DNA from: Lachnospiraceae bacterium
Lineage (GTDB): Bacteria; Bacillota; Clostridia; Lachnospirales; Lachnospiraceae
Assembly: GCA_017408735.1 (NCBI GenBank)
Contig: JAFQUB010000041.1
Coordinates: 89,373 to 129,372 of the forward strand
DNA: 40,000 nucleotides
Direction of reading: 5' to 3'
The translations under genes and the position numbers were made by a program. Positions 6,448-40,000 of this stretch are shown here, in pieces. Each line of letters starts with the position of its first letter. Position 1 is the stretch's first letter. Under the pieces are notes generated by a model that was given only the letters and a program-made list of their open reading frames with translations, ran no database searches and had not been told where the DNA came from.

Positions 6448-6455
6448 GAGGAACT

Positions 6456-23036: not shown

Positions 23037-23049
23037 GAGGTGTAAAATC

Positions 23050-23538: not shown

Positions 23539-23551
23539 TAGAAATGTTTAG

Positions 23552-23571
23552 AGAGCCACAGGCTCTTTTTT
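23552..23571 (+). terminator. Short hairpin with T-run after the tube gene (attenuator/terminator)
   Basis: AGAGCC-ACA-GGCTCT followed by TTTTTT. Confidence 0.5.
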
Positions 23572-23597
23572 AGTTGAAAAAATGGAGGATTAGAAAA

Positions 23598-24026
23598 ATG
23601 TCAGATTTTAAAATGTTTATGAAAGGCAACAAAAAGAAAAAAGAAAATCAGAAGTATGCGGCAACCAAGAGCTTGGTAGACGAAAATGGGAAACCATTGG
23701 AGTGGGAGCTTAAGCATATTACATCAAAGGAAAACGAAGACATCAGAGATGAATGTACGACAGAAGTACAGGTTACCGGAAAATTCGGAATGTACAGAAA
23801 CAAAACCAACACTGCAGAGTATGTAAGAAAGTTAATTACGGCATCTGTTGTGCATCCGGATTTGGATAACACAGAACTGCAGAACTCCTATGGAGTTATG
23901 TGTGCGGAGGACTTGCTTATGGAAATGGTGGATGATCCGGGAGAATATGCAGACCTTGCACAGTATGTACAGGAGATGCAAGGATTTAAAACACTGCAGG
24001 AAGATGTAGACGAGGCAAAAAACTAA
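23598..24026 (+). CDS. Tail assembly chaperone (XkdN-like), zero-frame product
   Basis: GGAGGA RBS precedes ATG 23598. Positioned between the tube and tape-measure genes. It ends at a slippery heptamer. Confidence 0.75.
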   Translation: MSDFKMFMKGNKKKKENQKYAATKSLVDENGKPLEWELKHITSKENEDIRDECTTEVQVTGKFGMYRNKTNTAEYVRKLITASVVHPDLDNTELQNSYGVMCAEDLLMEMVDDPGEYADLAQYVQEMQGFKTLQEDVDEAKN

Positions 24027-24223
24027 TAGAGCAGGGCGACCCGGAGAGCGTGTATGCACATTACGCCCTGCAGGAGTTACATATATTGCCATCCGTATTT
24101 CTCAATATGGACCAGGAAGAAAAGGCATTTGTAATAGCGTCGATTAAACAACGTTCGGAAGACAATAAAAAAGAAGTAGATGACATAAAAAATCCGAAAA
24201 AAGGAAAACGGAGAAAGAGGTGA
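24017..24223 (+). CDS. -1 programmed-frameshift extension of the tail assembly chaperone (G/GT-type)
   Basis: Canonical A_AAA_AAC heptamer at 24017-24023 lies in the correct zero-frame phase, one codon before the stop. The -1 frame is open from 24023 to TGA at 24221-24223 (LIEQGDPESVYAHYALQELHILPSVFLNMDQEEKAF...). There is no start codon or RBS for an independent gene. Confidence 0.7.
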   Translation, partial: KKLIEQGDPESVYAHYALQELHILPSVFLNMDQEEKAFVIASIKQRSEDNKKEVDDIKNPKKGKRRKR

Positions 24224-24227
24224 TACC

Positions 24228-26465
24228 ATGGCGACAATTCAAAGTTCCATTGCGCTATATGATAACTTTAGCCCGGTTCTGCACAATATTATGGATGCCA
24301 TGAATCTGACGATTGCTGGTGTCTATGATTTGCAGGATTCTATGGATAATTCTCTTGATGTAAATAGCTTTGAAGCGGCTGAAAATGCAATACGACAAGC
24401 AGGAGCTGCCATGGAATCACTGGAACGTCAGGCGGAAGATGTAAACCGCTCTGTGCGGAATAATGAACGAGTGCAGGAAAGTTTTAATCAGGAAGTGAGA
24501 AATGGAGCAACAGCCTCGAATGAGTTATTGTCTACAATAAAGAAAGTTGCCGGAGCATATCTTACGATACAAGGTGTAAGCAATTTGATGGAGCTTTCGG
24601 ATTCTGTTGCACAGACAGAGGCAAGATTAAGCCTTATTGTGGACGATGGCGGAAGCGTGGAGGAATTGCAGCAGAAAATTTTTGATGCCGCACAGGATGC
24701 CAGAGCGGACTATATGACAACAGCAGATGCTATTTCCAAGCTTGGAACGCAGGCAGGAGAAGCTTTTGCGAGCGACGATGAATTAATTGCCTTTACAACC
24801 TTGTTGAATAAAGAATTTGTCAACGCTGGAACTTCCGCTCAGGGAATTGATTCCGTAATGCTACAGTTAACACAGTCCATGGCGGCAGGTAAGCTTCAAG
24901 GCGAGGAATTAAATGCCGTTTTGGATAATGCAGCACCGATTGTAAGTAAGATAAAAACCTATTTGGAAGAGGTGCAGGGAATTGATGCAACCAACATTAA
25001 AGAACTAGCGTCAGAGGGTGTAATAACGGCAGATGTTATAAAGAACGCGATGTTTTATGCATCGGATGAAATAAACCAGACGTTTGATTCTATGCCAATG
25101 ACCTTTGAACAGGTAACAAATTCTATAAAAAATAATGCATTGGATGCTTTTGACCCAGTATTACAGAAAATGAATGACATAGCCAACAGTGAAAATTTTG
25201 GTGGCATGGTAAACAGTATAATTGGTAATTTAAATGTGTTGGGAGCAGCAACCGCAGAGATAATGGATTCATTCGACCCCATATTACAGAAAATGAATGA
25301 TATAGCAAACAGTGAAAGCTTTAATGATATGGCAAATGGCGCTATTGGTGCATTAACAGTACTGGGAGAAACAGCCATAAAAGTAGTGGATTTTCTTGTT
25401 ACCGGGACGGAATTTATAATTGACAACTGGTCATGGATTGGACCTATTGTTTATGGTGTTGTAGGTGCACTTGTTGTTTATTATAGCTGGCAGTTATTGT
25501 GTGCAGCAGGAAGCGCCATTATGGCAGCGGGAATGGCTCTGTTAAGTGCAAATCCGATATTACTTATTGTTATGGCAATTGTTGTTTTGATTGGAGCAAT
25601 TTATGCCGTTAGTGCTAAGATTGCGGACATGACAGGGGTAGCAGAATCAGGCTTTGGAGTTATCTGCGGAGCAATTAATGTAGTTATCGCATTTTTTATC
25701 AATTTAGGATTAACTGCGACGAATATCAGTCTTGGCATTACAAATGCCATCCTTGCACTTTGTGGAAATATGCAAACAGCTTTTCATAACGCCATTTGCA
25801 ATGTACAGTCATGGTTTTATAACTTATTATCTACGGCATTAACGGTAATTGCCGGAATCTGTGAGGCATTAAATCAATTACCGTTTGTGGAATTTGATTA
25901 CTCTGGAATTACATCAAAAGCAGCGGAATATGCTTCAAAATCAGCGGAAGCGGCAGGAAAGAAAGAAGAATATGAATCTATATCAGATGCTTTTAACAAA
26001 GGAATGTCAACATTTAACACATTTCAGGATGGTTGGGCCTCAAGTGCATTCGCAGCCGGCGCAGCATGGGGTGATGGTATTTCAGAAAAAGTTTCTAATG
26101 CCTTTGATTTTGGTAGCGGAGATGAAAATACAACAACCTATAATCCGGCAGATTATCTTAGCGGTTTAGAAGGTGTAGCCAACAACGCTGCTGACAGTGC
26201 TGGAAGTGCTGCCGGAAATACGGCTGACATTTCCAATAACACCGCAGATATTGCAGATGCCCTTGATATAACAAATGATGAACTTAAGTACTTAAGGGAT
26301 ATAAAGGAACAGGAAGTTATTGATCGGACAGTTTACAGAGATATTATTGTGGATATTGGCGAAATGAAAAACACAGTAAAAAATGAAGCAGATTTGGATG
26401 GCATAGCCAGCAAACTGGCAAATCATATTACGGAGCAGATAAAAATAAGTGCGGAAGGGGTGTAA
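24228..26465 (+). CDS. Tape measure protein
   Basis: 745 aa with a helical N-terminal part, a central cluster of hydrophobic helices and an internal tandem repeat. Canonical position. Confidence 0.9.
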   Translation: MATIQSSIALYDNFSPVLHNIMDAMNLTIAGVYDLQDSMDNSLDVNSFEAAENAIRQAGAAMESLERQAEDVNRSVRNNERVQESFNQEVRNGATASNELLSTIKKVAGAYLTIQGVSNLMELSDSVAQTEARLSLIVDDGGSVEELQQKIFDAAQDARADYMTTADAISKLGTQAGEAFASDDELIAFTTLLNKEFVNAGTSAQGIDSVMLQLTQSMAAGKLQGEELNAVLDNAAPIVSKIKTYLEEVQGIDATNIKELASEGVITADVIKNAMFYASDEINQTFDSMPMTFEQVTNSIKNNALDAFDPVLQKMNDIANSENFGGMVNSIIGNLNVLGAATAEIMDSFDPILQKMNDIANSESFNDMANGAIGALTVLGETAIKVVDFLVTGTEFIIDNWSWIGPIVYGVVGALVVYYSWQLLCAAGSAIMAAGMALLSANPILLIVMAIVVLIGAIYAVSAKIADMTGVAESGFGVICGAINVVIAFFINLGLTATNISLGITNAILALCGNMQTAFHNAICNVQSWFYNLLSTALTVIAGICEALNQLPFVEFDYSGITSKAAEYASKSAEAAGKKEEYESISDAFNKGMSTFNTFQDGWASSAFAAGAAWGDGISEKVSNAFDFGSGDENTTTYNPADYLSGLEGVANNAADSAGSAAGNTADISNNTADIADALDITNDELKYLRDIKEQEVIDRTVYRDIIVDIGEMKNTVKNEADLDGIASKLANHITEQIKISAEGV
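25143..25388 (+). repeat. Tandem 123-bp (41-aa) duplication inside the tape measure gene
   Basis: DAFDPVLQKMNDIANSENFGGMVNSIIGNLNVLGAATAEIM / DSFDPILQKMNDIANSESFNDMANGAIGALTVLGETAIKVV. Confidence 0.85.
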
Positions 26466-26468
26466 GAA

Positions 26469-27170
26469 ATGGGAAATGGATACAGAATGTACTTAGGAAC
26501 ACATCTCATGCCGGTTCCACCGAAAAAGCTGGAGCTGAAAGTAAACAATAAAAATGAAACCATTGACCTTTTAAACGGTGGAGAAATAAATCTTGTAAAA
26601 CAGCCGGGGCTTACTGACATAAAATTTGACCTGCTGATACCAAATACAAAATTACCGTTTGCATCTTACAGGCATGGATTTAAGCGCGCCTATTATTATC
26701 TAAAAATTTTGGAAAGATACAAAACAGGTGAAAAGACGTTTAGTTTTATTTTATATAGGACTTTGCCGAATGGTACAAATACCTACCAGACAGCACTTAA
26801 AGTAACGCTGGAAGATTACACAATAAAGGAAGATGCCGAAAATGGACTTGATGTTATTGTAAGTATACAGCTTAAACAGCATGCTTCCTATGGTGCGAAA
26901 ACAGCAAAAATTGTAAAGGGTAAAGTATTAACAAGAAAGATGGGAAGACCACAAAAGGAAATAAAACTCCCAACAACACATAAGGTTACAAAAACGGACA
27001 CGATATGGTCCATCGCAAAAAAGTATTACGGTGATGAATTGAAGTATCTGCCAATAAGGAGAGCGAATAGCAAGATATCAAAGAATCCGGAAGATTTAAA
27101 ACCGGGAATGAAGCTTACTATTCCAAAGATAGGAACTACGGATAAAACCATGGGAAGCGCACAAAAGTAG
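26469..27170 (+). CDS. LysM-domain tail protein (XkdP-like)
   Basis: C-terminal LysM: HKVTKTDTIWSIAKKYYGD....I...N......LKPGMKLTIP. Confidence 0.8.
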   Translation: MGNGYRMYLGTHLMPVPPKKLELKVNNKNETIDLLNGGEINLVKQPGLTDIKFDLLIPNTKLPFASYRHGFKRAYYYLKILERYKTGEKTFSFILYRTLPNGTNTYQTALKVTLEDYTIKEDAENGLDVIVSIQLKQHASYGAKTAKIVKGKVLTRKMGRPQKEIKLPTTHKVTKTDTIWSIAKKYYGDELKYLPIRRANSKISKNPEDLKPGMKLTIPKIGTTDKTMGSAQK

Positions 27171-27180
27171 GTGACAGCAT

Positions 27181-28134
27181 ATGAATATCGGACTTTATAT
27201 TTTTAATGGAAAAACAAGATATGAGCCTGTGGTGCTGGAAGAAGTAAAAGTAACATGGCAGAGAAAAAATACTCCGGGAAAATTGGAGTTCAAAGTTCAC
27301 CGGAAAGGTCTAAAATGCACAGAAGGGAATGCTGTTGCCATGTACGTGGGAAAAGTAGCATTTTTCTATGGCTATATTTTCAAAAAAAGCCGGAGCGAGG
27401 AAGATATAATTTCCATAACAGCCTATGACCAGTTACGGTATCTTAAAAACAAAGATACCTATAACTATTCCGGAAAAGCGAGTGATTTTATAAAGAGAGT
27501 TGCCAGTGATTTTGGGATTAAAACAGGAAAAATTGCGGATACAAATTATTCCATTCCCCCACGAATAGAGGATAACAGCACCTTGTTTGATATGTTTCAA
27601 AATGCGTTAGACTTAACCATGGCAAATACAGGGAAAATATACACTTTATATGATAAGTTTGGAGAGCTTACGCTTTCTGATATGGACACAATGATAACAA
27701 ATGTGCTGATTGATAAAGATACCTGCACAGAACTGGACTACACTTCCAGTATTGATGATGATACTTATAATAAGATAAAGCTTACGTATGATAACGAAGA
27801 AACCGGAAAAAGGGATGTTTATATAGCAAAAGACTCCAGCAATATTAATAAATGGGGTGTCCTCCAGTATTATGACACCCTGCAGGAAGGCGAAAACGGA
27901 CAGGCGAAGGTAGAACAACTGCTTAAATACTATAACCGGAAAACCAGAAACTTAAGTGTAAAAAAAGCAATTGGCAGCACAAAAGTACGTGGTGGAAGTT
28001 ATATAGTTGCTGTGCTAAGTCTTGGAGATATCAATGTAAAGAATTATATGCTTGTTGAAAAAGTAGTGCATAAGTTCGAAGCCGGAAAACATTTTATGGA
28101 TCTTACACTTGCAGGAGGTGAGTTTGTTGAATAA
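27181..28134 (+). CDS. XkdQ/YqbQ-like baseplate hub (gpD-like) protein
   Basis: Size and position, plus the pattern V.W...R...PG.L.F.V.......G..V. Confidence 0.7.
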   Translation: MNIGLYIFNGKTRYEPVVLEEVKVTWQRKNTPGKLEFKVHRKGLKCTEGNAVAMYVGKVAFFYGYIFKKSRSEEDIISITAYDQLRYLKNKDTYNYSGKASDFIKRVASDFGIKTGKIADTNYSIPPRIEDNSTLFDMFQNALDLTMANTGKIYTLYDKFGELTLSDMDTMITNVLIDKDTCTELDYTSSIDDDTYNKIKLTYDNEETGKRDVYIAKDSSNINKWGVLQYYDTLQEGENGQAKVEQLLKYYNRKTRNLSVKKAIGSTKVRGGSYIVAVLSLGDINVKNYMLVEKVVHKFEAGKHFMDLTLAGGEFVE

Positions 28135-28381
28135 CGATGATTTGCTTAATGCGATAAAACAGGCTGCAATGGATGCCGTAAGGGCAAGTAAGCCAACGAC
28201 TGGGATTGAGGCAGAAATCATATCTCTGGAACCACTAAAAATAAAAGTAGATCAGAAGCTTACCCTTACAAAAGAATTTCTTATTATTACAAACGAAATG
28301 AATTTAAAGTTGAAAAAAGGAAAAGTGTTGCTGTTACAGCTTCAGGGCGGACAAAGGTATGTAGTACTTGGAACTTTATAG
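28127..28381 (+). CDS. DUF2577 (XkdR-like) baseplate protein; start TTG 28124/28127 (track gives 28109)
   Basis: GGAGGTG at 28114-28120. Pattern: I.SLEPLKIKVDQKLTL..EFLI........LKKG..V.LLQ.QGGQRYVVL. Confidence 0.65.
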   Translation: MNNDDLLNAIKQAAMDAVRASKPTTGIEAEIISLEPLKIKVDQKLTLTKEFLIITNEMNLKLKKGKVLLLQLQGGQRYVVLGTL

Positions 28382-28391
28382 GAGGTGCATT

Positions 28392-28805
28392 ATGGTACCG
28401 GAAACAGATATCGAACTGGATTATTTGGAGGGCATAGAGGAAGAAGCCGAAATGCCTTCTTTTGATTTTAAATTAAATACGGAAACCAACCGGTTAAGCG
28501 GTAATGTGGAAGATTTGGAAGCTGTAAAACAGGCTATTTTCCTTATTTTAAGTACGGAAAGAGGCGAACATGCAATCTATCCGGAGGACTATGGTGTGGA
28601 ATTTAATGATTTAATCGGACAGGATGTAGAATGGGTAATACCGGAATTAGAAATGAGGATTAAAGAAGCTTTAATGATGGATGAAAGAATAACAGAGGCG
28701 ACAGATTTTGCATTTGATACCAGTACAAAGGGTGTTATAACGGTTACATTTTCTGTAGAAAGTACAAAGGGAACAATTACAGTAGAAAAGGAGGTGCCGG
28801 TATAA
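28392..28805 (+). CDS. DUF2634 / gp25-W-like baseplate wedge protein (XkdS-like)
   Basis: TAGGAGGTG RBS precedes ATG 28392. Pattern: EAVKQAIFLILSTERGEHAIYPEDYGVEF.DLIG. Confidence 0.75.
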   Translation: MVPETDIELDYLEGIEEEAEMPSFDFKLNTETNRLSGNVEDLEAVKQAIFLILSTERGEHAIYPEDYGVEFNDLIGQDVEWVIPELEMRIKEALMMDERITEATDFAFDTSTKGVITVTFSVESTKGTITVEKEVPV

Positions 28806-29900
28806 ATGAATTTTGATGAAAAGACTTATGAGAGCCTTTTACAGGAGAAACTTGATATGGTGGACAATAAGTATGACAAAAGGGAATCTTCCCTGATTTA
28901 CAGCGCACTTGCACCAAACAGTATGGAAATCCGCTCCATGTACATTTTTATCCAGTGGGTTCTTGATAATATTTTTGGAGATACAGCAGAACGGGAATAT
29001 CTGGAAAGAATAGCTTTGTTTACAAAAGGGCTGATTCCGGCAAAGGCAACAAGAGCAGTGTACCGCCTTGAAACGAATCTACCGGTGGAAATAGGAAGCA
29101 AATTCACATCGGACGTAATGACATTTGAGGTTACGGAAGAAATGGAAAGTTTCGGAGGTTATTGCAATTATAGGGCACAGTGTAACGAATACGGAATTGC
29201 AGGAAATGGATATGCAGGAATAGCAATACCGGTGGAATACATACAGGGACTTGAACATTGCGAGCTTGTGGAACTACTGGTACCGGGAGAGGATGAAGAA
29301 GACACGGAAGTTTTCAGGCAGAGATGGAGAGATAGCTTTAATAATACAGCTTTTGGTGGAAATAAAGCGGATTATAAAGCAAAAGTAAACTCCATTGATG
29401 GAGTTGGAAACTGTAAAGTTTACAGGGCTACAGATAGCGCTGGGAATCGTGCAGGAGGATATGTAAAGATTACAATAATAAATTCCGAATTTGAAGCTCC
29501 AAGTACAACACTTGTGGATGCTGTGCAACAAGAAATAGATCCTACAAGAGATGGAGAAGGAAATGGACTGGCACCGATAGGACAAATAGTGACTATCACT
29601 GGTGTGGAATCAGTAACAATTAATGTGAAAATGACTGTAACCTGTTCCGGAACAGTGGTGTTTGATGATATTAAAAGTTTTATTGAAAGTGCCATTAAGA
29701 AGTATTTCAAAGGTCTTTCGGAGAACTGGTCGGAAGAAAAAAGCATTACAGTATACAGCCGACAGGTACAGGCTGCCATTATTACATCCGTAAAAGAAAT
29801 TGAAGATATAACATCATTTACGATGAATGAATCTGATGGAAATATTGAGCTGACATCGGACCAGATACCTGTGCTTGGAGGTGTTACAAATGAAGCGTAA
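28806..29900 (+). CDS. Baseplate J-like protein (XkdT-like)
   Basis: 364 aa in the canonical position, starting one nt after the previous stop. Confidence 0.8.
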   Translation: MNFDEKTYESLLQEKLDMVDNKYDKRESSLIYSALAPNSMEIRSMYIFIQWVLDNIFGDTAEREYLERIALFTKGLIPAKATRAVYRLETNLPVEIGSKFTSDVMTFEVTEEMESFGGYCNYRAQCNEYGIAGNGYAGIAIPVEYIQGLEHCELVELLVPGEDEEDTEVFRQRWRDSFNNTAFGGNKADYKAKVNSIDGVGNCKVYRATDSAGNRAGGYVKITIINSEFEAPSTTLVDAVQQEIDPTRDGEGNGLAPIGQIVTITGVESVTINVKMTVTCSGTVVFDDIKSFIESAIKKYFKGLSENWSEEKSITVYSRQVQAAIITSVKEIEDITSFTMNESDGNIELTSDQIPVLGGVTNEA

Positions 29901-30432
29901 TCTGATTGATTTTCTTCCAGATATATTTAAAACCTTTGAAGAATTCAAAGAAATCATGCGCGTGGAGCAAAAGCAGATTTCAGAACTGTGGGAAATAATT
30001 TATGGAATTATAAATGAGGCTCTGGTAGATGAAGCAACAGGTGAAGGTCTGAAACGATGGGAAAACATACTGAACATAACAGTATTCGATACAGATGACG
30101 TAAAAGTGCGTAGGCTTCGTATACAGGCGAAGATAATTGAGGATGTTCCATATACAGAACGTGTGTTAAACAATATTCTTACAGGTCTTTGTGGAGAAAA
30201 TGGTTTTATGTCCGCTTTAAATAACGAGGAATATACGCTGACGATTAAGGTGGCATTAACAAGTAAGAACTTAAAGGATGAAGTTGTTGCTATGTGCGAA
30301 AGGATTGTGCCGGCGAATATCGTCCTTGACATCGACTTGATGTACAACACACACGGAATACTTAGAGGGTATACGCATAAGCAACTTAGACAATTTACGC
30401 ACGGACAGTTAAGAAATGAGGTGTTGCCATGA
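29890..30432 (+). CDS. DUF2313 / XkdU-like tail protein
   Basis: GGAGGTG RBS precedes ATG 29890. N-terminal LIDFLPDIFKTFEEFKEIM pattern. Confidence 0.7.
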   Translation: MKRNLIDFLPDIFKTFEEFKEIMRVEQKQISELWEIIYGIINEALVDEATGEGLKRWENILNITVFDTDDVKVRRLRIQAKIIEDVPYTERVLNNILTGLCGENGFMSALNNEEYTLTIKVALTSKNLKDEVVAMCERIVPANIVLDIDLMYNTHGILRGYTHKQLRQFTHGQLRNEVLP

Positions 30433-31256
30433 AAAAAAGTGAAATTTATGAAATGAATCTTTTCGATGAAGACGATTTTTATTCGGAAGAACTAATTAAT
30501 GAAAACACGCAGAAAATAGAAGAAGTAATGAAAAGTTTAGAAAAACCGGAACATGATACTACAGAGCAGACAAACGTAGAAGAACTGGAATCCGGCGAAA
30601 GCTTAAAAATAGCACTTAGGAAGCTTGCTAAATCGGTAGCAGACTATATAAGCCACAAAGCAGACCAAGTGGCGCACATAACCGCAGCGGAACGCACTGC
30701 ATGGAACGCAAAGTTGGGCGCGGAAAAGATAGCGGCGAATTTAACAACAGATACAGATGGCATGGTATTGGCAGCGGCTATGGGAAAGAATTTAAAGGAG
30801 CAGATAGATACAAATGCGAATGCCATTAGTACACTAAACTCAAATTTATTTATCAATGCATGTCATAAAACAGTGGATATTTCACAAACAGGATGGTATA
30901 GAATTTGTTGCATGCCAAATCAGCATGGAGATAGTAATACTCCTTACTTTATTTGTATTGGGCAAAATTACTACAAGAATAAGCCTACAACTGCGGTGTT
31001 ACTTGCATCAGAATGCTATCAATATGGTTATTTAGAAAAAATAACTTCTCATAGGATGGATAGTAATAATTACACGATAGATAAAGTAAGGTTGGCTGGC
31101 TCAGTGAATGAAAAATATGTAGACGTCCATATTATATCCACATCAGCAAATTATTATAGCTTTTCGGTAACAGCGTCGCGAATTAGATGGGAATTAGGTT
31201 ATATAGATGATGCAGATGCAGGTACGGTATTTTCGGAAATTGACTTATTTAGTTAG
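30429..31256 (+). CDS. Tail fibre / receptor-binding protein: constant N-terminal 139 aa fused to currently expressed variable cassette A (136 aa)
   Basis: ATGA overlap with the XkdU-like gene. The constant part ends in ...NANAISTLNSN at crossover site S1. Confidence 0.85.
   Translation: MKKSEIYEMNLFDEDDFYSEELINENTQKIEEVMKSLEKPEHDTTEQTNVEELESGESLKIALRKLAKSVADYISHKADQVAHITAAERTAWNAKLGAEKIAANLTTDTDGMVLAAAMGKNLKEQIDTNANAISTLNSNLFINACHKTVDISQTGWYRICCMPNQHGDSNTPYFICIGQNYYKNKPTTAVLLASECYQYGYLEKITSHRMDSNNYTIDKVRLAGSVNEKYVDVHIISTSANYYSFSVTASRIRWELGYIDDADAGTVFSEIDLFS
30828..30849 (+). repeat. Crossover site S1 (AGTACACTAAACTCAAATTTAT)
   Basis: Contains the shared core TAAACTCAAAT (30835-30845). It is in frame as TLNSN. 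Confidence 0.85.
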
Positions 31257-31512
31257 GTCCTATAGTTACAACACTCACCCTTATATCCGTCGCGGCAGAT
31301 GTTGATTTAGGTAAGTACATCAATTTTCCGTTGGCGGGTATATATACTGTACCACCATCATGCACTTTATCTGCTGTTCCACAGTTAATTAAACTAATTG
31401 AAATAATGTTGCTATAGCTTCCGATTGTTGCAATTTCTACTGAAACACCCTCTGTTATAGCGCCATTATAAAAATATGTCCTACAAATTCCTGTTAGTTT
31501 ATTTGAGTTTAG
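31249..31512 (-). other. Silent tail-fibre C-terminal cassette B (LNSN + 83 aa), no start of its own at the site
   Basis: Part of minus ORF 31249..31539. It reads ..SSLNSNKLTGICRTYFYNGAITEGV... and lies tail-to-tail with cassette A (8-nt overlap). Confidence 0.75.
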
Positions 31513-31518
31513 TGAACT
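31497..31518 (-). repeat. Crossover site S2 (reverse complement AGTTCACTAAACTCAAATAAAC)
   Basis: Core at 31501-31511, inverted relative to S1. It shares a 14-bp identity, CACTAAACTCAAAT, with S1. Confidence 0.85.
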
Positions 31519-31556
31519 TCCGGAGTATCCTAAAACCAAAAACGGAGGATACGGAA

Positions 31557-32537
31557 ATGGAAGAAAGATTTAGAAGCGAACTATTAATGGGGTTGGCAGA
31601 ATTTAGCAAAGAAGTAACAGAAAAAGTGGACAGGTTGCTTATTGGATTATTGCAGCGGTACCAGATAACGCAAAAAACAACAGAATTGGCAGTATTCCAA
31701 GAAGATACAAATATTCTGTTAATGCAAAGGTATATCGCAAGCTTGCGACTAGAAGGAAAATCGGAAGCTACGTTGGAACAGTATAAGAGAGCGATAGAAA
31801 AGCTTTCAGAAAGCATTTATAAGGCTTTCAAAGACATTACAACAAATGATATCAGATGCCACCTGGCGCGATATCAGACAATTAGAAAAGTGTGCAAAGC
31901 CACATTGGATAATGAGCGCAGATACTTGTCTGCGTTCTTCCGTTGGCTTACGGTAGAAGAGTACATAGAAAAGAACCCCATGTTAAGAATAAAAAAGGTA
32001 AAATCGGAAAAGAAGATAAAGAAAGCATTTTCTGATTTGGAATTAGAGAAATTGCGTGGGGCTTGCAGAACAAAAAGAGAAAAAGCACTGATAGAGTTTT
32101 TCCTATCAACTGGGTGCAGAGTATCAGAAGTAGTTGGGTTAGATATAGACCATGTAGATTTTAGTAAGAAAGAATGTGTAGTGTTCGGAAAAGGTGGAAA
32201 GGAAAGGACGGTATATTTAACTGAAAGGTGCCTGTATTACTTGGAAGAATACTTAAAAAGCAGAGAGGAGCAGGGGACTTTATTTGCCGGGAAGAAAAAC
32301 CAAAGATGGAGCAAAGCGGCAATAGAAAAGTGTTTAAGGAGTATGGGAGAACGTGCAGGAGTGCAGAACGTGCATCCGCATAGATTTAGACGAACATTCG
32401 CAACAAATGCACTGAATAAGGGAATGCCATTGCAGTATGTGCAACGCATCCTAGGGCATACGTCTATGGATACTACACTTATTTATTGCGTTGTAGATAC
32501 AGAAAACATGAAATTAGAGCATAAGAAAGTAGCATAA
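31557..32537 (+). CDS. Tyrosine site-specific recombinase (XerC/D / Rci-like), putative shufflon invertase
   Basis: GGAGGA RBS precedes ATG 31557, internal to track ORF 31476..32537. It has an N-terminal SAM-like domain. Catalytic pattern: STGCRVSEV (R), HPHRFRRTFAT (HxxR), LGHTSMDTTLIY (H...Y). Its stop codon lies inside site S3. Confidence 0.85.
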   Translation: MEERFRSELLMGLAEFSKEVTEKVDRLLIGLLQRYQITQKTTELAVFQEDTNILLMQRYIASLRLEGKSEATLEQYKRAIEKLSESIYKAFKDITTNDIRCHLARYQTIRKVCKATLDNERRYLSAFFRWLTVEEYIEKNPMLRIKKVKSEKKIKKAFSDLELEKLRGACRTKREKALIEFFLSTGCRVSEVVGLDIDHVDFSKKECVVFGKGGKERTVYLTERCLYYLEEYLKSREEQGTLFAGKKNQRWSKAAIEKCLRSMGERAGVQNVHPHRFRRTFATNALNKGMPLQYVQRILGHTSMDTTLIYCVVDTENMKLEHKKVA

Positions 32538-32558
32538 GTACTATAAACTCAAATTCTT
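32537..32558 (+). repeat. Crossover site S3 (AGTACTATAAACTCAAATTCTT)
   Basis: Core at 32544-32554, same orientation as S1. The upstream AGTAC is also shared with S1. Confidence 0.8.
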
Positions 32559-32884
32559 CTGGAATTAAAAAACAACTTAACGCTGGCGAATCCGCATACA
32601 TATACATTAACGATGGTAACGGAACTGGTGGAATTGTGCTAATTTCTGTATGGCGAGAAACTGCAAATCTTAGAGGAATATATATGGCGCAACCAGGGAA
32701 TGGTAATAACACAAACCAATATCAAGAGTCAACCGTTATTGCATTAAAAGAGCTATCCAGTATATCCGTAGAAGCTGCGGTGGATTCAAAATATTCGTCC
32801 GTGAAAATAACAAATAATCACACTTCCGCAGTATGTGTAAGAGCAGTTTCATTATGTGGAAGTCAACCAGAATGGATTTCATAA
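32546..32884 (+). other. Silent tail-fibre C-terminal cassette C (NSN + 109 aa)
   Basis: The frame is open from the site through track ORF 32636..32884 (..INSNSSGIKKQLNAGESAYIYINDGNGTGG...). No RBS or start at the site. Confidence 0.7.
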
Positions 32885-32892
32885 TTCTTATA

Positions 32893-33189
32893 TTATAGCA
32901 ACTTTAATTTTGTTGAACTAATATTAATACCAGTACCTAACTCACTGGATGCTGTTATTGTTACGCCAGTTGAATTAATTGTTACAGTTAACATACTTGA
33001 TAGATTTCCACAAATCCAGCTAAAATAAGAACCATCAGCGTAACCCGTTAGGTCGAGGTATGCAAGACCATTTCGAGGCCAGATACCGTTTTGTGAAAAA
33101 TGCAGTAAATACCTCCCTTTATCAAAAGAAATATCTTTTGAAGAATCTGAATTTAAGATACTATGATTCTTATATAAATTTGAGTTTAG
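32893..33189 (-). other. Silent tail-fibre C-terminal cassette D (LNSN + 94 aa)
   Basis: Reverse strand reads LNSNLYKNHSILNSDSSKDISFDKGRYLLHFSQNGIWPRNG...STKLKLL*. An in-frame stop lies just upstream of the site. It is tail-to-tail with cassette C and absent from the ORF track because it has no Met. Confidence 0.7.
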
Positions 33190-33195
33190 CTTACA
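33174..33195 (-). repeat. Crossover site S4 (reverse complement TGTAAGCTAAACTCAAATTTAT)
   Basis: Core at 33178-33188, inverted relative to S1. It shares a 16-bp identity, CTAAACTCAAATTTAT, with S1. Confidence 0.85.
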
Positions 33196-33219
33196 TTAAT
33201 TGAATAATTTGTTTAAAGC

Positions 33220-33261
33220 GCCTTACAAGAGCCGGATAATCCGACTTTTATAAGGCTTTTT
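33220..33261 (+). terminator. Hairpin plus T-run downstream of the invertible region
   Basis: GCCTTA...TAAGGC outer stem with an inner CGGA-TAA-TCCG, followed by TTTTT. Confidence 0.45.
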
Positions 33262-33296
33262 AAGCTACAAAAAATAAAAAGAAAGAAGGAAAACAT

Positions 33297-33644
33297 ATGG
33301 AGAAAGTAGTGTTAAAAGATGAAACAGAAATCGTAATCTGTGACGGAGCAGCGGAGAACTGCATAACAGTGCCTTTTACAGATGAATCTGAGGTTGCAGG
33401 AATTACTGAAAATTTCACGCAGCAAAATCTTGAGGAATTTAAGATTTACAATGCCAGCGGAGTTTTGTGTACTACAATTACCAATAAAAAGGTAAAAAGT
33501 TACACAACCAATTTGGAAGAAAAAACAGTAACGTTCAATCTAGAAGATGTTTCTAAATTAGAAAATCGCGTAACAGAATTGGAAGCAACACAGGAAATGC
33601 AGGATGAAGCGATTATGGAACTGGCAGAAATGGCGGTAGAATAG
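33297..33644 (+). CDS. Hypothetical protein with C-terminal coiled coil (occupies the XkdW-like slot)
   Basis: GAAGGAAAAC RBS. Position between the fibre and XkdX-like genes. No motif recognised. Confidence 0.55.
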   Translation: MEKVVLKDETEIVICDGAAENCITVPFTDESEVAGITENFTQQNLEEFKIYNASGVLCTTITNKKVKSYTTNLEEKTVTFNLEDVSKLENRVTELEATQEMQDEAIMELAEMAVE

Positions 33645-33886: not shown

Positions 33887-34321
33887 ATGGAGAAAATCAG
33901 CACAATTAAAGCAATTATTTTAACAATCATCGGGACATTAGGGAGCATTGTAACAAAATGGTTCGGAGGATGGACAGAAGATTTGACAACGTTAATTATT
34001 TTTATGGGAATCGATTACTTAATGGGACTTGCTATTGCAGCCTTTTGGAAAAAGAGCGGAAAGTCCAAAACTGGAGCATTAAATAGCATTTCCGCATGGC
34101 AGGGGCTTATCCGGAAAGGATGCTCATTGTTGGTTGTATTAGTAGGATATCGTTTGGATTTAGCAATTGGCACAGATTACATAAAGACAGCGGTAATAAT
34201 TGCATTTATAACAAACGAAGCAATTTCTATTGTGGAAAACATTGGTATTATGGGCATTCCGTTGCCAAAGACAATTACAAAAGCAATAGATGTGTTAAAG
34301 AGTAAATCAGAGGGCGAGTAA
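33887..34321 (+). CDS. Holin (phage_holin_4_1 / TcdE-like family)
   Basis: Multiple TM helices. Family-typical W.G..ED..TL..FM.IDY..G...A.........S....G..KK........NE.ISI.EN....G..IP. Confidence 0.88.
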   Translation: MEKISTIKAIILTIIGTLGSIVTKWFGGWTEDLTTLIIFMGIDYLMGLAIAAFWKKSGKSKTGALNSISAWQGLIRKGCSLLVVLVGYRLDLAIGTDYIKTAVIIAFITNEAISIVENIGIMGIPLPKTITKAIDVLKSKSEGE

Positions 34322-34356
34322 TCGTCCTCTTTTCTATTAGAAAGGGTGTGAAAAGT

Positions 34357-35247
34357 ATGAAAACGAGCCAAAATGGAATTGATTTAATTAAGAAATTTGA
34401 GGGTTGCCGATTAAAAGCATATAAGTGTGCGGCGGATGTGTGGACGATTGGGTACGGGCACACGAATGGGGTAAAATCTACAAATGTGATTACAGAAGTA
34501 CAGGCAGAAGAATACCTAAAGGAAGATTTAGAGCGATTCGAGAAAAATGTCGAGAAATATAATTACCGATATAATTGGAACCAGAATGAATTTGATGCCC
34601 TGGTTAGCTTTGCATTTAATCTCGGATCCATCGACAAATTGACAGCAGATGGAACACGGAGCAGAGAAGTGATAGCAGAAAAAATCCTTTGTTATAATAA
34701 AGCCGGCGGAAAAGTTCTTACTGGGTTAACAGAAAGAAGAAAAGCGGAACAGAAGTTATTTTTAACCAAAGTTGCACCGGTGCAACAGTATTCTAAAAAT
34801 AAAACCACAGACGGATCCGGTTTGATTCGAGCAGTGCAGCAGTGGTTAAATAAAGAATATGGAAAATATATTAAAGTTTGCGAAGCCTGCGGCAAAAAGT
34901 TACTGGAAGTAGACGGAGAATTCGGTGCAAAGACCAAGGCTGCTCTTACAATTGCCCTACAGGTATGGTTAAACGACTTCGAAGATATTAGTTTAAAAGT
35001 AGATGGAGAGTTCGGAGCTAAGACCAAGGCAGCATGTAAAATTGTTAGCACAACAATTAATGCTTACACTAGAGGAGCCCAGATTGTACAGGCAATTCTT
35101 TATTGCAATAAGTACAATCCGCAGATGTTCGACGAAGCATTTAACAAGGACTGTGAAACAGCATTAAAAGCATACCAAACCGGCCGAGGACTTAAACCGG
35201 ATGGAGTGGCAGGGCCGCTTTTCTTCGAATCTGCTTTGACAAACTAA
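34357..35247 (+). CDS. Endolysin: GH24 lysozyme domain plus C-terminal peptidoglycan-binding repeats (alternative GTG start at 34348)
   Basis: GIDLIKKFEGCRLKAYKCAADVWTIGYGHT (catalytic E, T4/lambda-lysozyme type). Repeated VDGEFGAKTKAA and LKPDGVAGP PG_binding_1-like motifs. Confidence 0.9.
   Translation: MKTSQNGIDLIKKFEGCRLKAYKCAADVWTIGYGHTNGVKSTNVITEVQAEEYLKEDLERFEKNVEKYNYRYNWNQNEFDALVSFAFNLGSIDKLTADGTRSREVIAEKILCYNKAGGKVLTGLTERRKAEQKLFLTKVAPVQQYSKNKTTDGSGLIRAVQQWLNKEYGKYIKVCEACGKKLLEVDGEFGAKTKAALTIALQVWLNDFEDISLKVDGEFGAKTKAACKIVSTTINAYTRGAQIVQAILYCNKYNPQMFDEAFNKDCETALKAYQTGRGLKPDGVAGPLFFESALTN
34771..34786. repeat. Palindrome copy P5, GTTGCACCGGTGCAAC (perfect)
   Basis: Exact copy in the inter-domain linker of the endolysin, translated as VAPVQQ, in the same phase as P2. 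Confidence 0.95.
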
Positions 35248-35300: not shown

Positions 35301-35867
35301 TATATCCTAGCGAAGTTCGGAGGTCCGGACGGTGAATTGGCAGCATCTATGCGCTATTTATCCCAGAGGTATGCCATGCCGTATCGAGAAGTTATGGGAA
35401 CGCTGACAGATATCGGTACGGAGGAACTTGCACATTTAGAAATGATTGGAGCTATTGTGCATCAGCTTACAAGAAACCTGACTCCGGAGGAAATCGTTGC
35501 TTCCGGTTTTGATAAATACTATGTAGACCATACCACTGGCATCTGGCCACAGGCAGCAGGAGGAATTCCGTTTAATGCTTGTGAATTTCAGAGCAAAGGG
35601 GACCCGATTACGGATTTGGTGGAAGACTTGGCAGCGGAACAGAAGGCACGATCCACTTATGACAATATTTTGCGTCTGGTACATGACAGTGATGTGGCCG
35701 ACCCGATTCGTTTCCTGAGAGAAAGAGAAATTGTACATTTCCAGAGGTTTGGGGAAGCTTTAAGACTGGTTCAGGATAAACTGGATTCGAAAAACTTTTA
35801 TGCCTTTAACCCGGCATTTGATTGTAAAGTGAATCCATCCACAGGATGTAAATGTCAGAAATCATAA
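35301..35867 (+). pseudogene. 5'-truncated manganese-catalase-family / CotJC-like gene (host side of the prophage junction)
   Basis: ..ILAKFGGPDGELAASMRYLSQRYAMP..LTDIGTEELAHLEMIGAIV...AEQKARSTYDNIL...FLREREIVHFQRF matches CotJC/Mn-catalase from about residue 20-25 onward. Upstream in frame there is no ATG or RBS, and a stop lies at 35265-35267. Confidence 0.65.
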
Positions 35868-36130: not shown

Positions 36131-39100
36131 ATGCATAAGAAACGTATTTTTAAGTTTTTCCGTATTTCTATTTCAGCTGCATTAGCATTCTCCATGATTT
36201 TTGGACAGATTGGTTCAAGTCTTGGATTTTCATATGCGCAGGAAGTGCAGGCACAGGAAGCGGAAAGCGAATATGTTGAGGAGAATGTTGATGCTTCTAA
36301 TGCATCAAATGCGGAAAAGTATGGATTGGCAGACAATACAAAAGATGGTGTTATTCTCCACGCGTTCTGCTGGTCATTCAATACAATTAAAGAAAATATG
36401 AAAGATATTGCAGAGGCAGGATATACAACAGTTCAGACTTCACCTGCAAATGCATGTAACGACAGTTATCCAACCAAGGCACTTTGGGATTTAAACCAGG
36501 TGTGGAATACTAGTTATGATGGAAAACAGGGCGCATGGTGGTGGCATTATCAGCCAACAGACTGGACTATCGGTAATTATCAGTTAGGTAGTGCAGAAGA
36601 TTATAAGGCTATGTGTGAAGAGGCAGACAAGTATGGTGTGAAAATTATCACAGACGTAATTCCAAACCACACTGCAAGTGATACAAGCAAAGTATCTCAA
36701 AATCTTATCAATGCCGCTGGAGGCAGTTTATATCATGCAAATGGTTTTAACCAGATTAACAATGAAGGTGAATGGTCTTGGGGAAACCGTTTGGCATGTA
36801 CTACCGGTATGATGGGAGGATTACCTGATGTTAATACAGAAAATCAGGGATTCCAGGCGTACTATTTGAAATATTGTAATGATTTGATTGCTCTTGGATG
36901 TGACGGTTTCCGTTACGATACAGCAAAACACATCGGTGTACCAAGCGACCCGAAAGATTCCGCCAATACTCGTGGAGTAAACGATTTCTGGGATGTGGCA
37001 ACCGGTAAAAAAGCTGTAAATGGAGTATCATTAAGTAACAAGGACAACCTGTTTATTTACGGTGAAGTATTACAGGGAGATAATGTTCCTACCAGTGAAT
37101 ATGCAGGCTACATGGAACAGACAGCCAGCAATTATGGAGGAGCATTAAGAGAGGCAGTTAAAAATAAAAATTTCAGTGTAGGAAATATTTCAAATTGGCA
37201 GCATTCTGATCCTGGTAAGATAGTTACCTGGGTAGAATCTCATGATACCTATATGAATAATCATGAATCTGCTTCCTTGACAAACGACCAGATTAAAATG
37301 GCATGGGCTTTGATTACAGCTCGTAAAGACGGTACTCCATTGTTCTTAAGCAGACCGGATGGCTCCGACGGTGCTTCTGGAAATTTCTATGGAAACAACG
37401 TACTTGGTGCCAAAGGTAATGATCACTTTAAGGATCCTGAAATTGTTGCAGTAAACAAATTCCGTACTGCGATGATTGGACAGGGGGAATATTTAAGAAA
37501 TCCAAATGGAAGTTCTCAGATTCTTCAGATTGACCGTGGAGAATTAGGAACATGTATTATTAACCTTGGTGGAAACACAAGCATTAACAGTGAAACTACC
37601 ATGGCAGATGGTACTTATACAGATCAGGTATCCGGTAGAGAGTTCACTGTATCCAATGGAAAAATCAGCGGACAGTTAGACAGCTACAAAGTGGCAGTTA
37701 TTTATAATCAGGATGGCAATACAAAACCAAGTATTAAAGCGTCTGTAGAAGCCGGAAGTACTTTTACTACAGATACAATAGATGTAACATTTACAGTAAA
37801 GAATGTAGCGAGTGCAACCTATACTATAGATAATGGAGAAAGCGTTCCATTTACAGACAGTGTAACATTAACATTAGGTTCTGATACAGCTTATGGAGAT
37901 GAAGTAAGGGTTAGAATTGATGTTACAGCAGAAGATGGCGCCATGACGGGACCGGTCTTTAGCTATAAAAAGAAAGAAGCTGGTAAGCTGGAAAAGAATA
38001 CAGTATACTTCACAAAACCTTCCGGATGGAGTTCAGCAAGCATTTATGCGTATATTCCAAATGGAAATGAAGCAACCAAACTTACAGGAGCTTGGCCGGG
38101 AACAGCTATGACAGATGAAGGTAACGGAGTTTATTCTTATACTTTTGATGCAAGCGTTTCTGAATGTAAAGTAATTTTTAATGATGGAAAAGGGGAAAAT
38201 GCACAGCAGACACCGAAAGATGAAGAAGGAAAGGCTTGTGGATATGATTACACAAGCGGAAAAGCATATACATGCGAGAATGAAGTTTGGACAGCTGTAG
38301 AAGTAAGTAATCCAACAACTCCACCAACAAACACACCAACAAACACACCGGTACCAACAGTAACAGAAGCGCCGGTGGGAATTAAAATCAATTCCTCTCT
38401 CGCAGACAACAGCAGTTTCTCAACAGAAACAGAAACAATTAAGATTACATTGGAAAATGCTGAAAAAGGAACATACTGCGTAGACGATGGTCCTGTAAAA
38501 GAATTTACAAACAGTGCAGATGTTGTAATTGGTAAAGGTAAAATCGCAGACAGCACAGTTACTGTAAAAGTAACAGCTGAAGGAAATGGCGAAACAGCAA
38601 CAAAGACATTTACATATACAAAAGAATATGTGGCAACCTACAGCAATCAGGTTGTGCCTGTAAATGCAGGAGCAGCTATGGAAGAGGTTGTAGAAGAAGC
38701 AGAAGTTAACGCAGCAGCAGAATCCACTGCATACTATGCAACCAACCCAAGTGGTAAAGTTGGTAAGAAAGCAACAATTACTATTGATGGTGACTGTTCA
38801 GACTGGACAGAAGACATGAAAGTAGCTAATTCGGGAGCATGGGATATTTCTAATAACTTCAAAGGTGCACATGAAAACTCTGTAGCAGATTGTTACGGTT
38901 TATATGCTGCATGGGATGATGAAAACCTGTACCTTGGTCTTGAAATGGTAAATACTACAGACACCTGGGGAAATCCTGGAGATGGACCTTTATCAGATGG
39001 TGGAAAAATTTCAAAGGTTCCAATTGGTTTTGCGATCGATACAGGTAGAGGAAATGCACTTACAGGTAAGATGGAAGAAGGTTTGGATCCATATATTTGG

Positions 39101-40000
39101 AGCTGTGCCATTGAATTCGAAACAAGAATTGACTATTTGATTTATGCCAGCGCAGTATTTGAAGGAACACCGGGATTGTTCCGTGCAAATGCTGAAGGAC
39201 TGACAAACTATACAACAAACTGCTTATCCTTTGAAGATGAAGGAATCAGCTATAAGAAAGCGGATGACAGTGTTTCCGCGCAGATTATGGAAGTATGCAA
39301 TGCAACCTCTCCGAAAGATGTTTATAATACAGCAAAATACCGTGATGCGTTAACAGCAGCAAGCAACGGCGGAAAAAGAAATCATGACAGAAAATATGAT
39401 TCATTTTATGAAATTAACATTCCGTTATCAAGCTTAGGAATTGACAGTACTTATATTGAACAGAACGGAATTGGAGTTATGGGACTTGGAACAAGAGGAA
39501 GCTCAGGAATTGACTGTGTACCACATGACCCGACTATGTTAGACAATGCAACGGGAGAATGTGCGGTAGATCCATCTACTTCTCATGAAAAAGATGATAC
39601 AGATGTTATCACGGTTCCATTGGCAAGTGTTGGTAAATTACGAGATGGAACAGTTAATCCGGTAACACCAGCAGTAACAGCACCACCGGTAGCAACAAGT
39701 ACACCTGTACCAACAGCAGAACCAACAGATGTGCCGGTTGATGGAATTGCTGTAAACTTCGGTGCAGACCGTTCCGCGCCACAGTACAATTCAACAGCAT
39801 TGGAAATTAAGGCAGAAGTAAGCGGTGGAACAGCACCATATAACTATGAATTCTTTGTAGACAATGTATCTGTAAAGAATGGTGCAGAAGATACATATAC
39901 ATGGCAGAATGGCTCAGCAGGGGCACATACCATTAAAGTAGTAGTAACAGACAGCACAGGAAAGACAGCAACAGTTGCAAAAGAATATGACTTAGAACAG
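36131..40000 (+). CDS. Secreted multidomain GH13 alpha-amylase (AmyE-like catalytic domain plus Ig/CBM-like modules and Thr/Pro linkers), 3' end outside window
   Basis: TAGGAGGAAGAAG RBS precedes ATG 36131, followed by a signal peptide. GH13 motifs: VILHAFCWSFNTIKENMKDIAEAGYTTVQTSP, DVIPNH, GFRYDTAKHI, YGEVLQ, WVESHDTY. The frame is open to position 40000. It is absent from the ORF track because no stop falls in the window. Confidence 0.92.
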   Translation, partial: MHKKRIFKFFRISISAALAFSMIFGQIGSSLGFSYAQEVQAQEAESEYVEENVDASNASNAEKYGLADNTKDGVILHAFCWSFNTIKENMKDIAEAGYTTVQTSPANACNDSYPTKALWDLNQVWNTSYDGKQGAWWWHYQPTDWTIGNYQLGSAEDYKAMCEEADKYGVKIITDVIPNHTASDTSKVSQNLINAAGGSLYHANGFNQINNEGEWSWGNRLACTTGMMGGLPDVNTENQGFQAYYLKYCNDLIALGCDGFRYDTAKHIGVPSDPKDSANTRGVNDFWDVATGKKAVNGVSLSNKDNLFIYGEVLQGDNVPTSEYAGYMEQTASNYGGALREAVKNKNFSVGNISNWQHSDPGKIVTWVESHDTYMNNHESASLTNDQIKMAWALITARKDGTPLFLSRPDGSDGASGNFYGNNVLGAKGNDHFKDPEIVAVNKFRTAMIGQGEYLRNPNGSSQILQIDRGELGTCIINLGGNTSINSETTMADGTYTDQVSGREFTVSNGKISGQLDSYKVAVIYNQDGNTKPSIKASVEAGSTFTTDTIDVTFTVKNVASATYTIDNGESVPFTDSVTLTLGSDTAYGDEVRVRIDVTAEDGAMTGPVFSYKKKEAGKLEKNTVYFTKPSGWSSASIYAYIPNGNEATKLTGAWPGTAMTDEGNGVYSYTFDASVSECKVIFNDGKGENAQQTPKDEEGKACGYDYTSGKAYTCENEVWTAVEVSNPTTPPTNTPTNTPVPTVTEAPVGIKINSSLADNSSFSTETETIKITLENAEKGTYCVDDGPVKEFTNSADVVIGKGKIADSTVTVKVTAEGNGETATKTFTYTKEYVATYSNQVVPVNAGAAMEEVVEEAEVNAAAESTAYYATNPSGKVGKKATITIDGDCSDWTEDMKVANSGAWDISNNFKGAHENSVADCYGLYAAWDDENLYLGLEMVNTTDTWGNPGDGPLSDGGKISKVPIGFAIDTGRGNALTGKMEEGLDPYIWSCAIEFETRIDYLIYASAVFEGTPGLFRANAEGLTNYTTNCLSFEDEGISYKKADDSVSAQIMEVCNATSPKDVYNTAKYRDALTAASNGGKRNHDRKYDSFYEINIPLSSLGIDSTYIEQNGIGVMGLGTRGSSGIDCVPHDPTMLDNATGECAVDPSTSHEKDDTDVITVPLASVGKLRDGTVNPVTPAVTAPPVATSTPVPTAEPTDVPVDGIAVNFGADRSAPQYNSTALEIKAEVSGGTAPYNYEFFVDNVSVKNGAEDTYTWQNGSAGAHTIKVVVTDSTGKTATVAKEYDLEQ

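Follow-up and report, generated by a model that had tools for sequence, protein, structure and literature searches.

Positions 30827 to 33196 of a 40,000-nucleotide (nt) stretch of DNA from a Lachnospiraceae bacterium (contig JAFQUB010000041.1 of the metagenome-assembled genome (MAG) GCA_017408735.1; the whole stretch is called the window here) very probably hold a working multiple-inversion shufflon, which switches the C-terminal domain of a tail fibre in a prophage of the PBSX/Mu-like myovirus type. The region forms part of the prophage tail module. Four copies of a short site each head an alternative C-terminal cassette, and a gene for a Xer-like tyrosine recombinase is found in the middle. 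The shufflon logic had been proposed in a first-pass annotation made from the sequence alone, and it is supported by independent assemblies of the same phage in public data, among which flipped forms of the locus could be identified. The features of the locus, in window coordinates, are as follows.

30429-31256 (+): fibre open reading frame (ORF), 275 amino acids (aa), directly after the Baseplate_J and Mu Gp48-like genes
30429..30845 (+): constant fibre N-terminus, 139 aa, ending ISTLNSN
30827..30845 (+): site S1, core 30835-30845 with upstream arm AAGTACAC/AGTACAC
30846..31256 (+): cassette A, 136 aa and stop, the C-terminus expressed in the window
31249..31500 (-): cassette B, 83 aa and stop, silent, lacking its own start codon at the site
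31501..31519 (-): site S2, core 31501-31511, upstream arm AGTTCAC on the minus strand
31557..32537 (+): Xer-like tyrosine recombinase, 326 aa, within segment X2 (31512-32543), between S2 and S3
32536..32554 (+): site S3, core 32544-32554, upstream arm AGTACTA, overlapping the end of the recombinase gene region
32555..32884 (+): cassette C, 109 aa and stop, silent in the window
32893..33177 (-): cassette D, 94 aa and stop, silent in the window
33178..33196 (-): site S4, core 33178-33188, upstream arm TGTAAGC on the minus strand
33297-33644 (+): conserved 115-aa gene directly 3' of the shufflon, used as the right-hand anchor

A scan of the window recovered the 11-base-pair (bp) core TAAACTCAAAT in S1 to S4, at the positions and on the strands that the first-pass annotation had given. 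By chance, 0.06 copies would be expected per 40 kb, and the observed count was reached in 0 of 100 shuffles. The longer shared flanks it had named are also present, with CTAAACTCAAATTTAT common to S1 and S4 and CACTAAACTCAAAT common to S1 and S2. The consensus of the site, AAGTACAC-TAAACTCAAAT, is ~19 bp long and asymmetric, and the cassette side varies. Among 16 sites from 6 lineages, whose fibre N-termini are 68-80% identical, the core does not vary, and conservation extends 7-8 nt upstream of it. The site alignment showed the conserved arm on the upstream side only, with no dyad, in contrast to a dif-like site, in which two inverted arms enclose a 6-8-bp spacer. Exact 17-mer and 15-mer scans for the site in IMG/VR and the JGI metagenomes returned only single, chance-like matches, and no locus with two cores except one unrelated tandem repeat.

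The same scan found a fifth exact copy of the core, missed in the first-pass annotation, at 13695-13705 (-), antisense within the terminase large-subunit gene (13094-14365). Recombination of this copy with S1 would invert 17 kb. It was rejected as a fifth site, since it is not accompanied by the AGTACAC arm and a stop lies 8 codons downstream; with no conserved arm and no open frame, it is probably a chance occurrence.

Read in its own orientation, every site encodes (L/I)NSN in frame and then continues into an open segment, a different one for each site. The four cassettes, as translated from LNSN, have the lengths first reported, and the stop said to precede cassette D was located two codons upstream of its LNSN. 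Given the base composition, open reading through all three silent frames has a chance probability of ~6e-10; this estimate was used instead of an open-frame test with random frames, which was uninformative because real genes were sampled. The cassettes lie in two tail-to-tail pairs on either side of the recombinase gene, as originally described, and nearly fill their segments, A and B overlapping by 8 nt and C and D being 8 nt apart. No pairwise similarity could be detected among the four. Silent cassette C is under purifying selection, with a dN/dS of 0.14 against an expressed copy in a related locus (L002), where the constant part gives 0.17. Moreover, each of the four cassettes is used as a fibre C-terminus in some sequence. 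Cassette A is expressed in the window, and cassette B behind the constant region in P0001/L001 (the same phage) and in the relative P0003/L134. Cassette C is expressed in the relatives P0009 and P0015, and D-like cassettes are found on two unrelated N-termini (P0020 and P0021), with LNSN again at the junction.

Inverted forms were sought by searching 5.8 billion proteins for the constant 139 aa. In one protein, P0001, the constant part is 100% identical and is followed by cassette B. Its contig, L001, matches window positions 22666-30845 at 100% (8180 bp) and then 31518-30834 reversed at 99.85%, with one mismatch in 685 bp; the crossover falls within the S1 core, and the contig stops at the far site. 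This is the S1xS2 product, which had been predicted to express cassette B, seen here behind an 8.2-kb flank without mismatch. On the other side of the locus, two contigs were reached through the exact 115-aa protein. In L078, the first 18 nt of cassette C and the core abut a right flank of 3035 bp, which is 100% identical to the window and extends to the host amylase gene; this contig is the S3xS4 product. The other, L077, begins exactly at S4.

The exact recombinase protein was found on seven contigs from different samples, 1054-1987 bp in length, which break at S2 and S3; five of the seven are essentially the S2-S3 segment alone (1054-1099 bp). The 5' side of the recombinase adjoins B in the window and D in L058 and L059, and its 3' side adjoins C in the window and in L060-62, A in L058 and L059, and B in L063. 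For example, L059 has the order D-site-recombinase-site-A. Cassette B, at the 5' end of the recombinase in the window, is found at the 3' end in L063, as inversion of X2 predicts. Related assemblies, where the first-pass annotation had suggested looking for alternative arrangements, thus also hold recombinase-A, recombinase-B and recombinase-D joints. Taking four flanks (N, for the constant region; recombinase 5'; recombinase 3'; and right) against four cassettes, 9 of the 16 possible joints were seen. At every joint the upstream arm stays with its own flank, which places the crossover inside the 11-bp core.

Every alternative arrangement comes from short-read metagenome assemblies, so one could suppose that the joints are chimeric joins made at a short repeat. 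We consider this extremely improbable. De Bruijn assemblers usually use k-mers longer than a repeat of 11-19 bp. With 11 identical bp, or 14-19 bp including the flanks, the repeat is shorter than the assembler k-mers, and the joints must be carried by spanning reads. The same joints also recur across the ENA and Logan pipelines (L058/L059; L060-L062), and the N-B fusion is an intact ORF that is found in the diverged relative P0003 as well.

A second possibility is that the shufflon is a fossil, in which rare inversions or recombination occurred in the past and the lysogens are now fixed in one state. Most of the evidence is indeed a comparison of contigs across samples, the NCBI MAG runs straight through the locus on a 129-kb contig, and the three contigs of the other four-site lineage (L068-L070) have a single arrangement. 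Nevertheless, the two cassette-C joints, recombinase-C in L062 and right flank-C in L078, come from the same run, SRR12529389, which means that isomers coexist in one sample. Over 8.2 kb and 3 kb, the flanks of the isomers are 100% identical and free of substitutions, which makes the inversions very recent, more so than any point mutation. In at least six samples the assemblies are interrupted precisely at the sites, and the recombinase is intact, with none of its catalytic residues missing. The Logan contigs L062 and L078 end 19 and 18 nt past the core; with Logan k assumed to be 31, these ends lie close to the k-1 overlap of 30 nt (19 nt added to the 11-bp core), where a branching node of the assembly would leave them. 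A fossil is thus very unlikely.

The recombinase matches Pfam Phage_integrase (3e-39) and SAM_4 and no other Pfam domain, and has an extra N-terminal region of ~55 aa. Its closest solved structures are XerC-like 4a8e and XerD 1a0p. In alignment with these, R188, K215, H275, R278, H301 and Y310 correspond to the XerD catalytic residues, so all six active-site residues of a tyrosine recombinase (R-K-H-R-H/W-Y) are present and the first-pass assignment to this family stands. Of the NCBIfam Xer models, only XerA_Arch, the archaeal XerA/integron-integrase model, scores above its cut-off (231 bits, cut-off 220), whereas XerC (183; 335) and XerD (174; 330) fall far below theirs. The protein is predicted to share the Xer fold type, and not the Xer function in dimer resolution. 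It is identical to NCBI MBQ2801744.1, and the window fibre to MBQ2801743.1. Two longer contigs, of 24 and 47 kb, encode recombinases with at least 90% identity to it (P0023, P0025). A scan of the GTDB species representatives gave a best match to the recombinase of 45% identity, in a Lachnospiraceae MAG, and a blastn search of the locus against 50,697 phage genome records gave no match.

Relatives of the locus differ in the number of sites and in the presence of the recombinase. L069, of the other four-site lineage, matches the window in architecture; its four cassettes are different ones, and its recombinase is 63% identical. In L002, L065, L071-73 and L131-133, there are two inverted perfect sites, with one expressed and one silent cassette; L071-73 and L131-133 represent three samples each. 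These two-site loci show one arrangement per sample, and assemblies run straight through them. The idea that they are S1xS3 deletion products was given little weight, since the four-site loci have a different right-hand flank. L066 has neither site nor spare cassettes.

Several observations weigh against a working shufflon. Besides the uniform arrangement in L068-L070, there is the level of the evidence, in that heterogeneity within a clone is deduced from contigs of short-read metagenome assemblies. The N-C and N-D joints of the window phage were not found among the assemblies searched; of the two-step route proposed for expression of cassette C, S3xS4 followed by S1xS4, the first product is seen (L078) and the N-C joint is not. 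No promoter of the recombinase was identified, and promoter and terminator counts at 30300-33400 were no higher than in shuffles. The assignment of the fibre depends on gene order and on weak profile matches (Phage_fiber_rpt at 20.3 bits, cut-off 27; PHROG tail families at E ~1e-5). An AlphaFold model of the C-type fibre, built from an 18-sequence alignment, had a mean predicted local distance difference test (pLDDT) score of 44, unusable for a fold search; at that score it gives a hint of a helical N-terminus and a beta-rich cassette. In L058 (1-840, ENA ERZ28654015), a host deoC-like gene is followed by the order truncated C-D-site-recombinase-site-A, which points to a second, possibly static or defective, shufflon copy in some genomes. 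Some of the joints on the recombinase side could stem from such a copy, but not the N-B and right flank-C joints, which are anchored in long unique flanks. Finally, the two-site loci have no recombinase in cis, and catalysis in trans is possible there in principle. The deoxyribose-phosphate-aldolase-like gene in L058 abuts the last ~30 codons of the C-like cassette.

The two-site loci bear on a further alternative, that an enzyme of the host or of another prophage carries out the inversions in trans, while the embedded protein serves in dimer resolution or integration. These loci have the same core and no adjacent recombinase, and the embedded protein scores above the cut-off of a Xer-type model. 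On the other hand, the recombinase gene is bracketed by the sites, and this position is kept in the independent four-site lineage L069. Homologues with 49-55% identity lie beside longer fibres with ...STLNSN and near-consensus sites (L035, L037), and the XerC and XerD equivalog scores argue against a role in dimer resolution. The recombinase-less loci are invariant among samples, and the relative L071 has a separate large serine recombinase as its prophage integrase. An enzyme acting in trans is therefore unlikely. We infer that the embedded enzyme is the catalyst, since it is encoded between the sites and conserved in L069, and since loci that lack it are uniform.

In the proposed mechanism of the shufflon, the fibre would be expressed from the late operon, with one cassette attached to an N-terminal anchor and helical shaft. 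The Xer-like recombinase would bind the ~19-bp one-armed sites, pair inverted copies and exchange strands within the core. As the core consists of the LNSN codons, every product would be an in-frame fusion. The segments would be X1 (the A/B pair), X2 (the recombinase) and X3 (the C/D pair). Because the sites alternate (+,-,+,-), only odd runs should be invertible, that is X1, X2 and X3 singly or X1-X2-X3 together. The routes listed in the first-pass annotation are possible; the list was incomplete, as X2 is also flanked by inverted sites (S2 and S3) and can flip. The expected outcome is 2 orders x 2^3 orientations, or 16 DNA isomers, with four fibre variants, the N-D joint of the window phage presumably among them. 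Flipping of X2 may switch the recombinase on and off. The cassettes would be receptor-binding domains setting host range, and the phage population would then be a mixture of adsorption specificities. The exact position of cleavage and spacer, the timing and regulation of the enzyme, and the avoidance of deletion between the direct repeats S1/S3 and S2/S4 are likewise inferred parts of the scheme.

Comparison of relatives indicates that the cassettes are also exchanged between phages. Among 18 homologues of the constant region (47-100% identity), the ending ...ISTLNSN is kept, with ISALNTD in one, and after this junction the sequences diverge into at least 14 unrelated C-termini. In L131 (2408-3071), the C/D pair and both sites are 97.9% identical to window positions 33202-32537 over 666 bp, and nothing else in the 8.7 kb examined matches the window; the fibre N-terminus of this phage, of 390 aa, is unrelated, and the phage has a Peptidase_G2 tailspike. 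Nucleotide identity in L134 is 96% for cassette B and 82% for the constant part. The C/D module in L131 and cassette B in L134 imply that cassette pairs move between phages as site-bounded modules, and this sharing suggests a route for the horizontal spread of receptor specificities. From the same two cases, a more speculative reading can be drawn, which we regard as possible and somewhat doubtful: the LNSN site might be a docking point for a shared pool of cassettes in Clostridia phages, with the recombinase swapping cassette pairs between unrelated phages resident in the same cell, as a natural recombinase-mediated cassette exchange, and serving the recombinase-less loci in trans. Between L131 and the window, 7 of the 7 differences in cassette D are non-synonymous and 0 synonymous, which is not statistically significant.

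The nearest known system is the Rin shufflon of Bifidobacterium breve and B. longum prophages, described in 2018 by Mavrich et al. (PMC6109161). There, a phage-encoded, armless XerD-like tyrosine recombinase lies beside the gene of the receptor-binding protein (RBP), and inversions at asymmetric 11-bp rix sites were seen in prophage and virion DNA (PMC6109161). Rin-type loci have also been reported in Eggerthella lenta prophages (PMC8778435). Like Rin, the window locus has a Xer-like enzyme without an arm-binding domain adjoining the fibre or RBP gene, and a constant N-terminus followed by dissimilar cassettes for the C-terminus, which lack promoters and each have a short asymmetric site at the head. 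Inversions at the sites are found in natural DNA in both (on contig-level evidence for the window phage), and the presumed role is in both cases the variation of host range. The two differ in host (Actinobacteria for Rin, Clostridia for the window phage), in phage type (a siphovirus with a TP901-1-like RBP, as opposed to a PBSX/Mu-like myovirus fibre) and in site (rix is TTCCCTAACCC (PMC6109161), the window core TAAACTCAAAT). Furthermore, Rin is at one end of its array, whereas the window recombinase is central, self-invertible and between tail-to-tail pairs. The window locus probably works like Rin, the likeness being one of function and of Xer-like type.

A tail-fibre shufflon has also been described in a BV01-like phage of Phocaeicola vulgatus, in a 2026 preprint (PMC13596623). 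A multi-cassette shufflon there overlaps the distal end of the fibre gene with the recombinase adjoining, the directional motifs of 10 bp have extensions of 14-18 bp, and every configuration was found in natural samples. The phage is a siphovirus of Bacteroidota, with the motif TGGGAGAACT, three cassettes and six variants. A tyrosine-recombinase fibre shufflon is therefore not unprecedented, contrary to what the first-pass annotation implied (PMC6109161; PMC8778435), and the BV01-like fibre shufflon is a further precedent (PMC13596623). The principle has been known since Rin in 2018; what is new here is the site, the layout and the setting in a Clostridia myophage. No description of a tyrosine-recombinase fibre shufflon in Firmicutes phages was found in the searchable literature.

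Other inversion systems are more distant. The R64/IncI shufflon (Rci) likewise combines a tyrosine recombinase, multiple inversions and a constant N-terminus whose alternative C-termini set recognition specificity. As reportedly described by Gyohda and Komano, the R64 sfx sites have one conserved arm and a core, ~19 bp in all, with the other arm non-conserved; asymmetric, one-armed sites are thus shared with the window phage. However, Rci acts on the conjugative pilus adhesin pilV, whereas the target in the window is a phage fibre; the rci gene is outside the invertible segments and that of the window recombinase inside; and the window site is unrelated to sfx. By target and site, the locus is thus not of the R64 type, and the best profile of its enzyme is Xer-type. 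The Gin, Cin, Min and Pin systems (Mu, P1, p15B, e14) also switch fibre C-termini behind a constant N-terminus by inversion, and Min of p15B is a multi-segment shufflon as well. They rely on serine invertases of the Resolvase family and a Fis-dependent enhancer, and an assembly chaperone gene of its own is present on each invertible segment, in contrast to the window cassettes, which have none. The window locus, with its tyrosine recombinase, falls outside the Gin/Cin/Min group; Pfam gave no Resolvase match for the fibre and recombinase ORFs, the whole 28-36 kb stretch not having been searched. In hsdS shufflons (pneumococcal ivr/SpnD39III, creX), a tyrosine recombinase gene lies between alternative half-gene cassettes, and in-frame recombination within the coding sequence yields several specificities. 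The window locus similarly has its recombinase gene inside the invertible locus, between cassettes. The target of the hsdS systems is different, being the specificity subunit of a type I restriction-modification enzyme and not a phage structural gene, and their repeats are 15-333 bp long.

For phages of the gut and rumen, host range is the chief gap in knowledge, and those of Lachnospiraceae have hardly been characterized. The locus described here is a sequence-defined switch that would let one prophage present four fibre tips, with flipped forms already in public data. It extends tyrosine-recombinase RBP shufflons from phages of Actinobacteria and Bacteroidota to Clostridia myophages, and the ~19-bp site is now defined and can be used as a search query. 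The shufflon also explains why assemblies of these phages are fragmented at the fibre gene and why silent cassettes are missed in annotation, with NCBI annotating only the fibre and the recombinase. A compact recombinase and a short site giving seamless in-frame fusions could help to engineer phage host range.

The remaining genes around the shufflon are as follows.

28806-29900: Baseplate_J gene
29875-30432: Mu Gp48-like gene
33887-34321: holin
34348-35247: lysozyme-type endolysin
35337-35867: truncated Mn-catalase (CotJC-like) ORF, right of the endolysin
36131-40000: amylase-like ORF, >1289 aa, assigned by eye and continuing beyond the window

Genes for terminase, portal, capsid, sheath and tape measure are found 5' of the tail module. 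The gene order points to a PBSX/Mu-like myovirus, with the 275-aa protein at the putative fibre (XkdV-like) position. The 115-aa gene is kept after the fibre locus in all relatives, and family searches with it gave no match. To the 3' side, the phage genes give way to the Mn-catalase ORF, which is truncated, and to a large host gene for what looks like a secreted amylase; these host ORFs place the right end of the prophage between ~35250 and 36130. The early region encodes a rolling-circle Rep-like protein (REP_ORF2-G2P; 2402-3157) and a PcfJ-like protein (4477-6447), and none of the ten window ORFs scanned in the same search was identified as a prophage integrase.

More distant homologues of the recombinase, with 32-36% identity, are found in two isolated phages, Terrisporobacter phage TPELB_ph1 (PP197244.1 17645-18640) and Clostridium perfringens phage phiCp-D (MW478291.1 21639-22616). 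Both are labelled 'integrase' and are placed between the last tail gene and the holin, and TPELB_ph1 carries a separate integrase besides. A quick repeat scan of these two phages gave no convincing inverted site pair.

Some of the related loci have unusual layouts. In L035 (5546-5913), a 55%-identical recombinase lies beside a 464-aa fibre with a near-consensus site, and a second, inverted, degenerate site is found ~340 nt away, just past the fibre stop. After this second site, the fibre C-terminal segment is open for 67 codons in antisense, so the segment might code on both strands. In L037-L047 (IMG/VR, ~5427-6850), with a fibre of the 689-aa type and the site variants CTAGACTCGAAT and CTAAACTCGAAT, a 49%-identical recombinase sits between two inverted sites. 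L049 (5427-6369) has a recombinase truncated to 142 aa and a degenerate site, and looks like a decayed switch. Another layout is seen in L135 (4816-6192), where an LNSN site opens the C-terminal domain of each of two convergent fibre-like genes; one has the window-type N-terminus, and the other, on the opposite strand, has a different one and is at least 249 aa long. Inversion there would swap C-termini between two complete genes. Finally, in alignment A1, a seven-residue indel (IDTNANA or TDASLQEQ versus none) precedes ISTLNSN at columns ~136-142, which is consistent with a heptad-wise change of length in a coiled-coil shaft.

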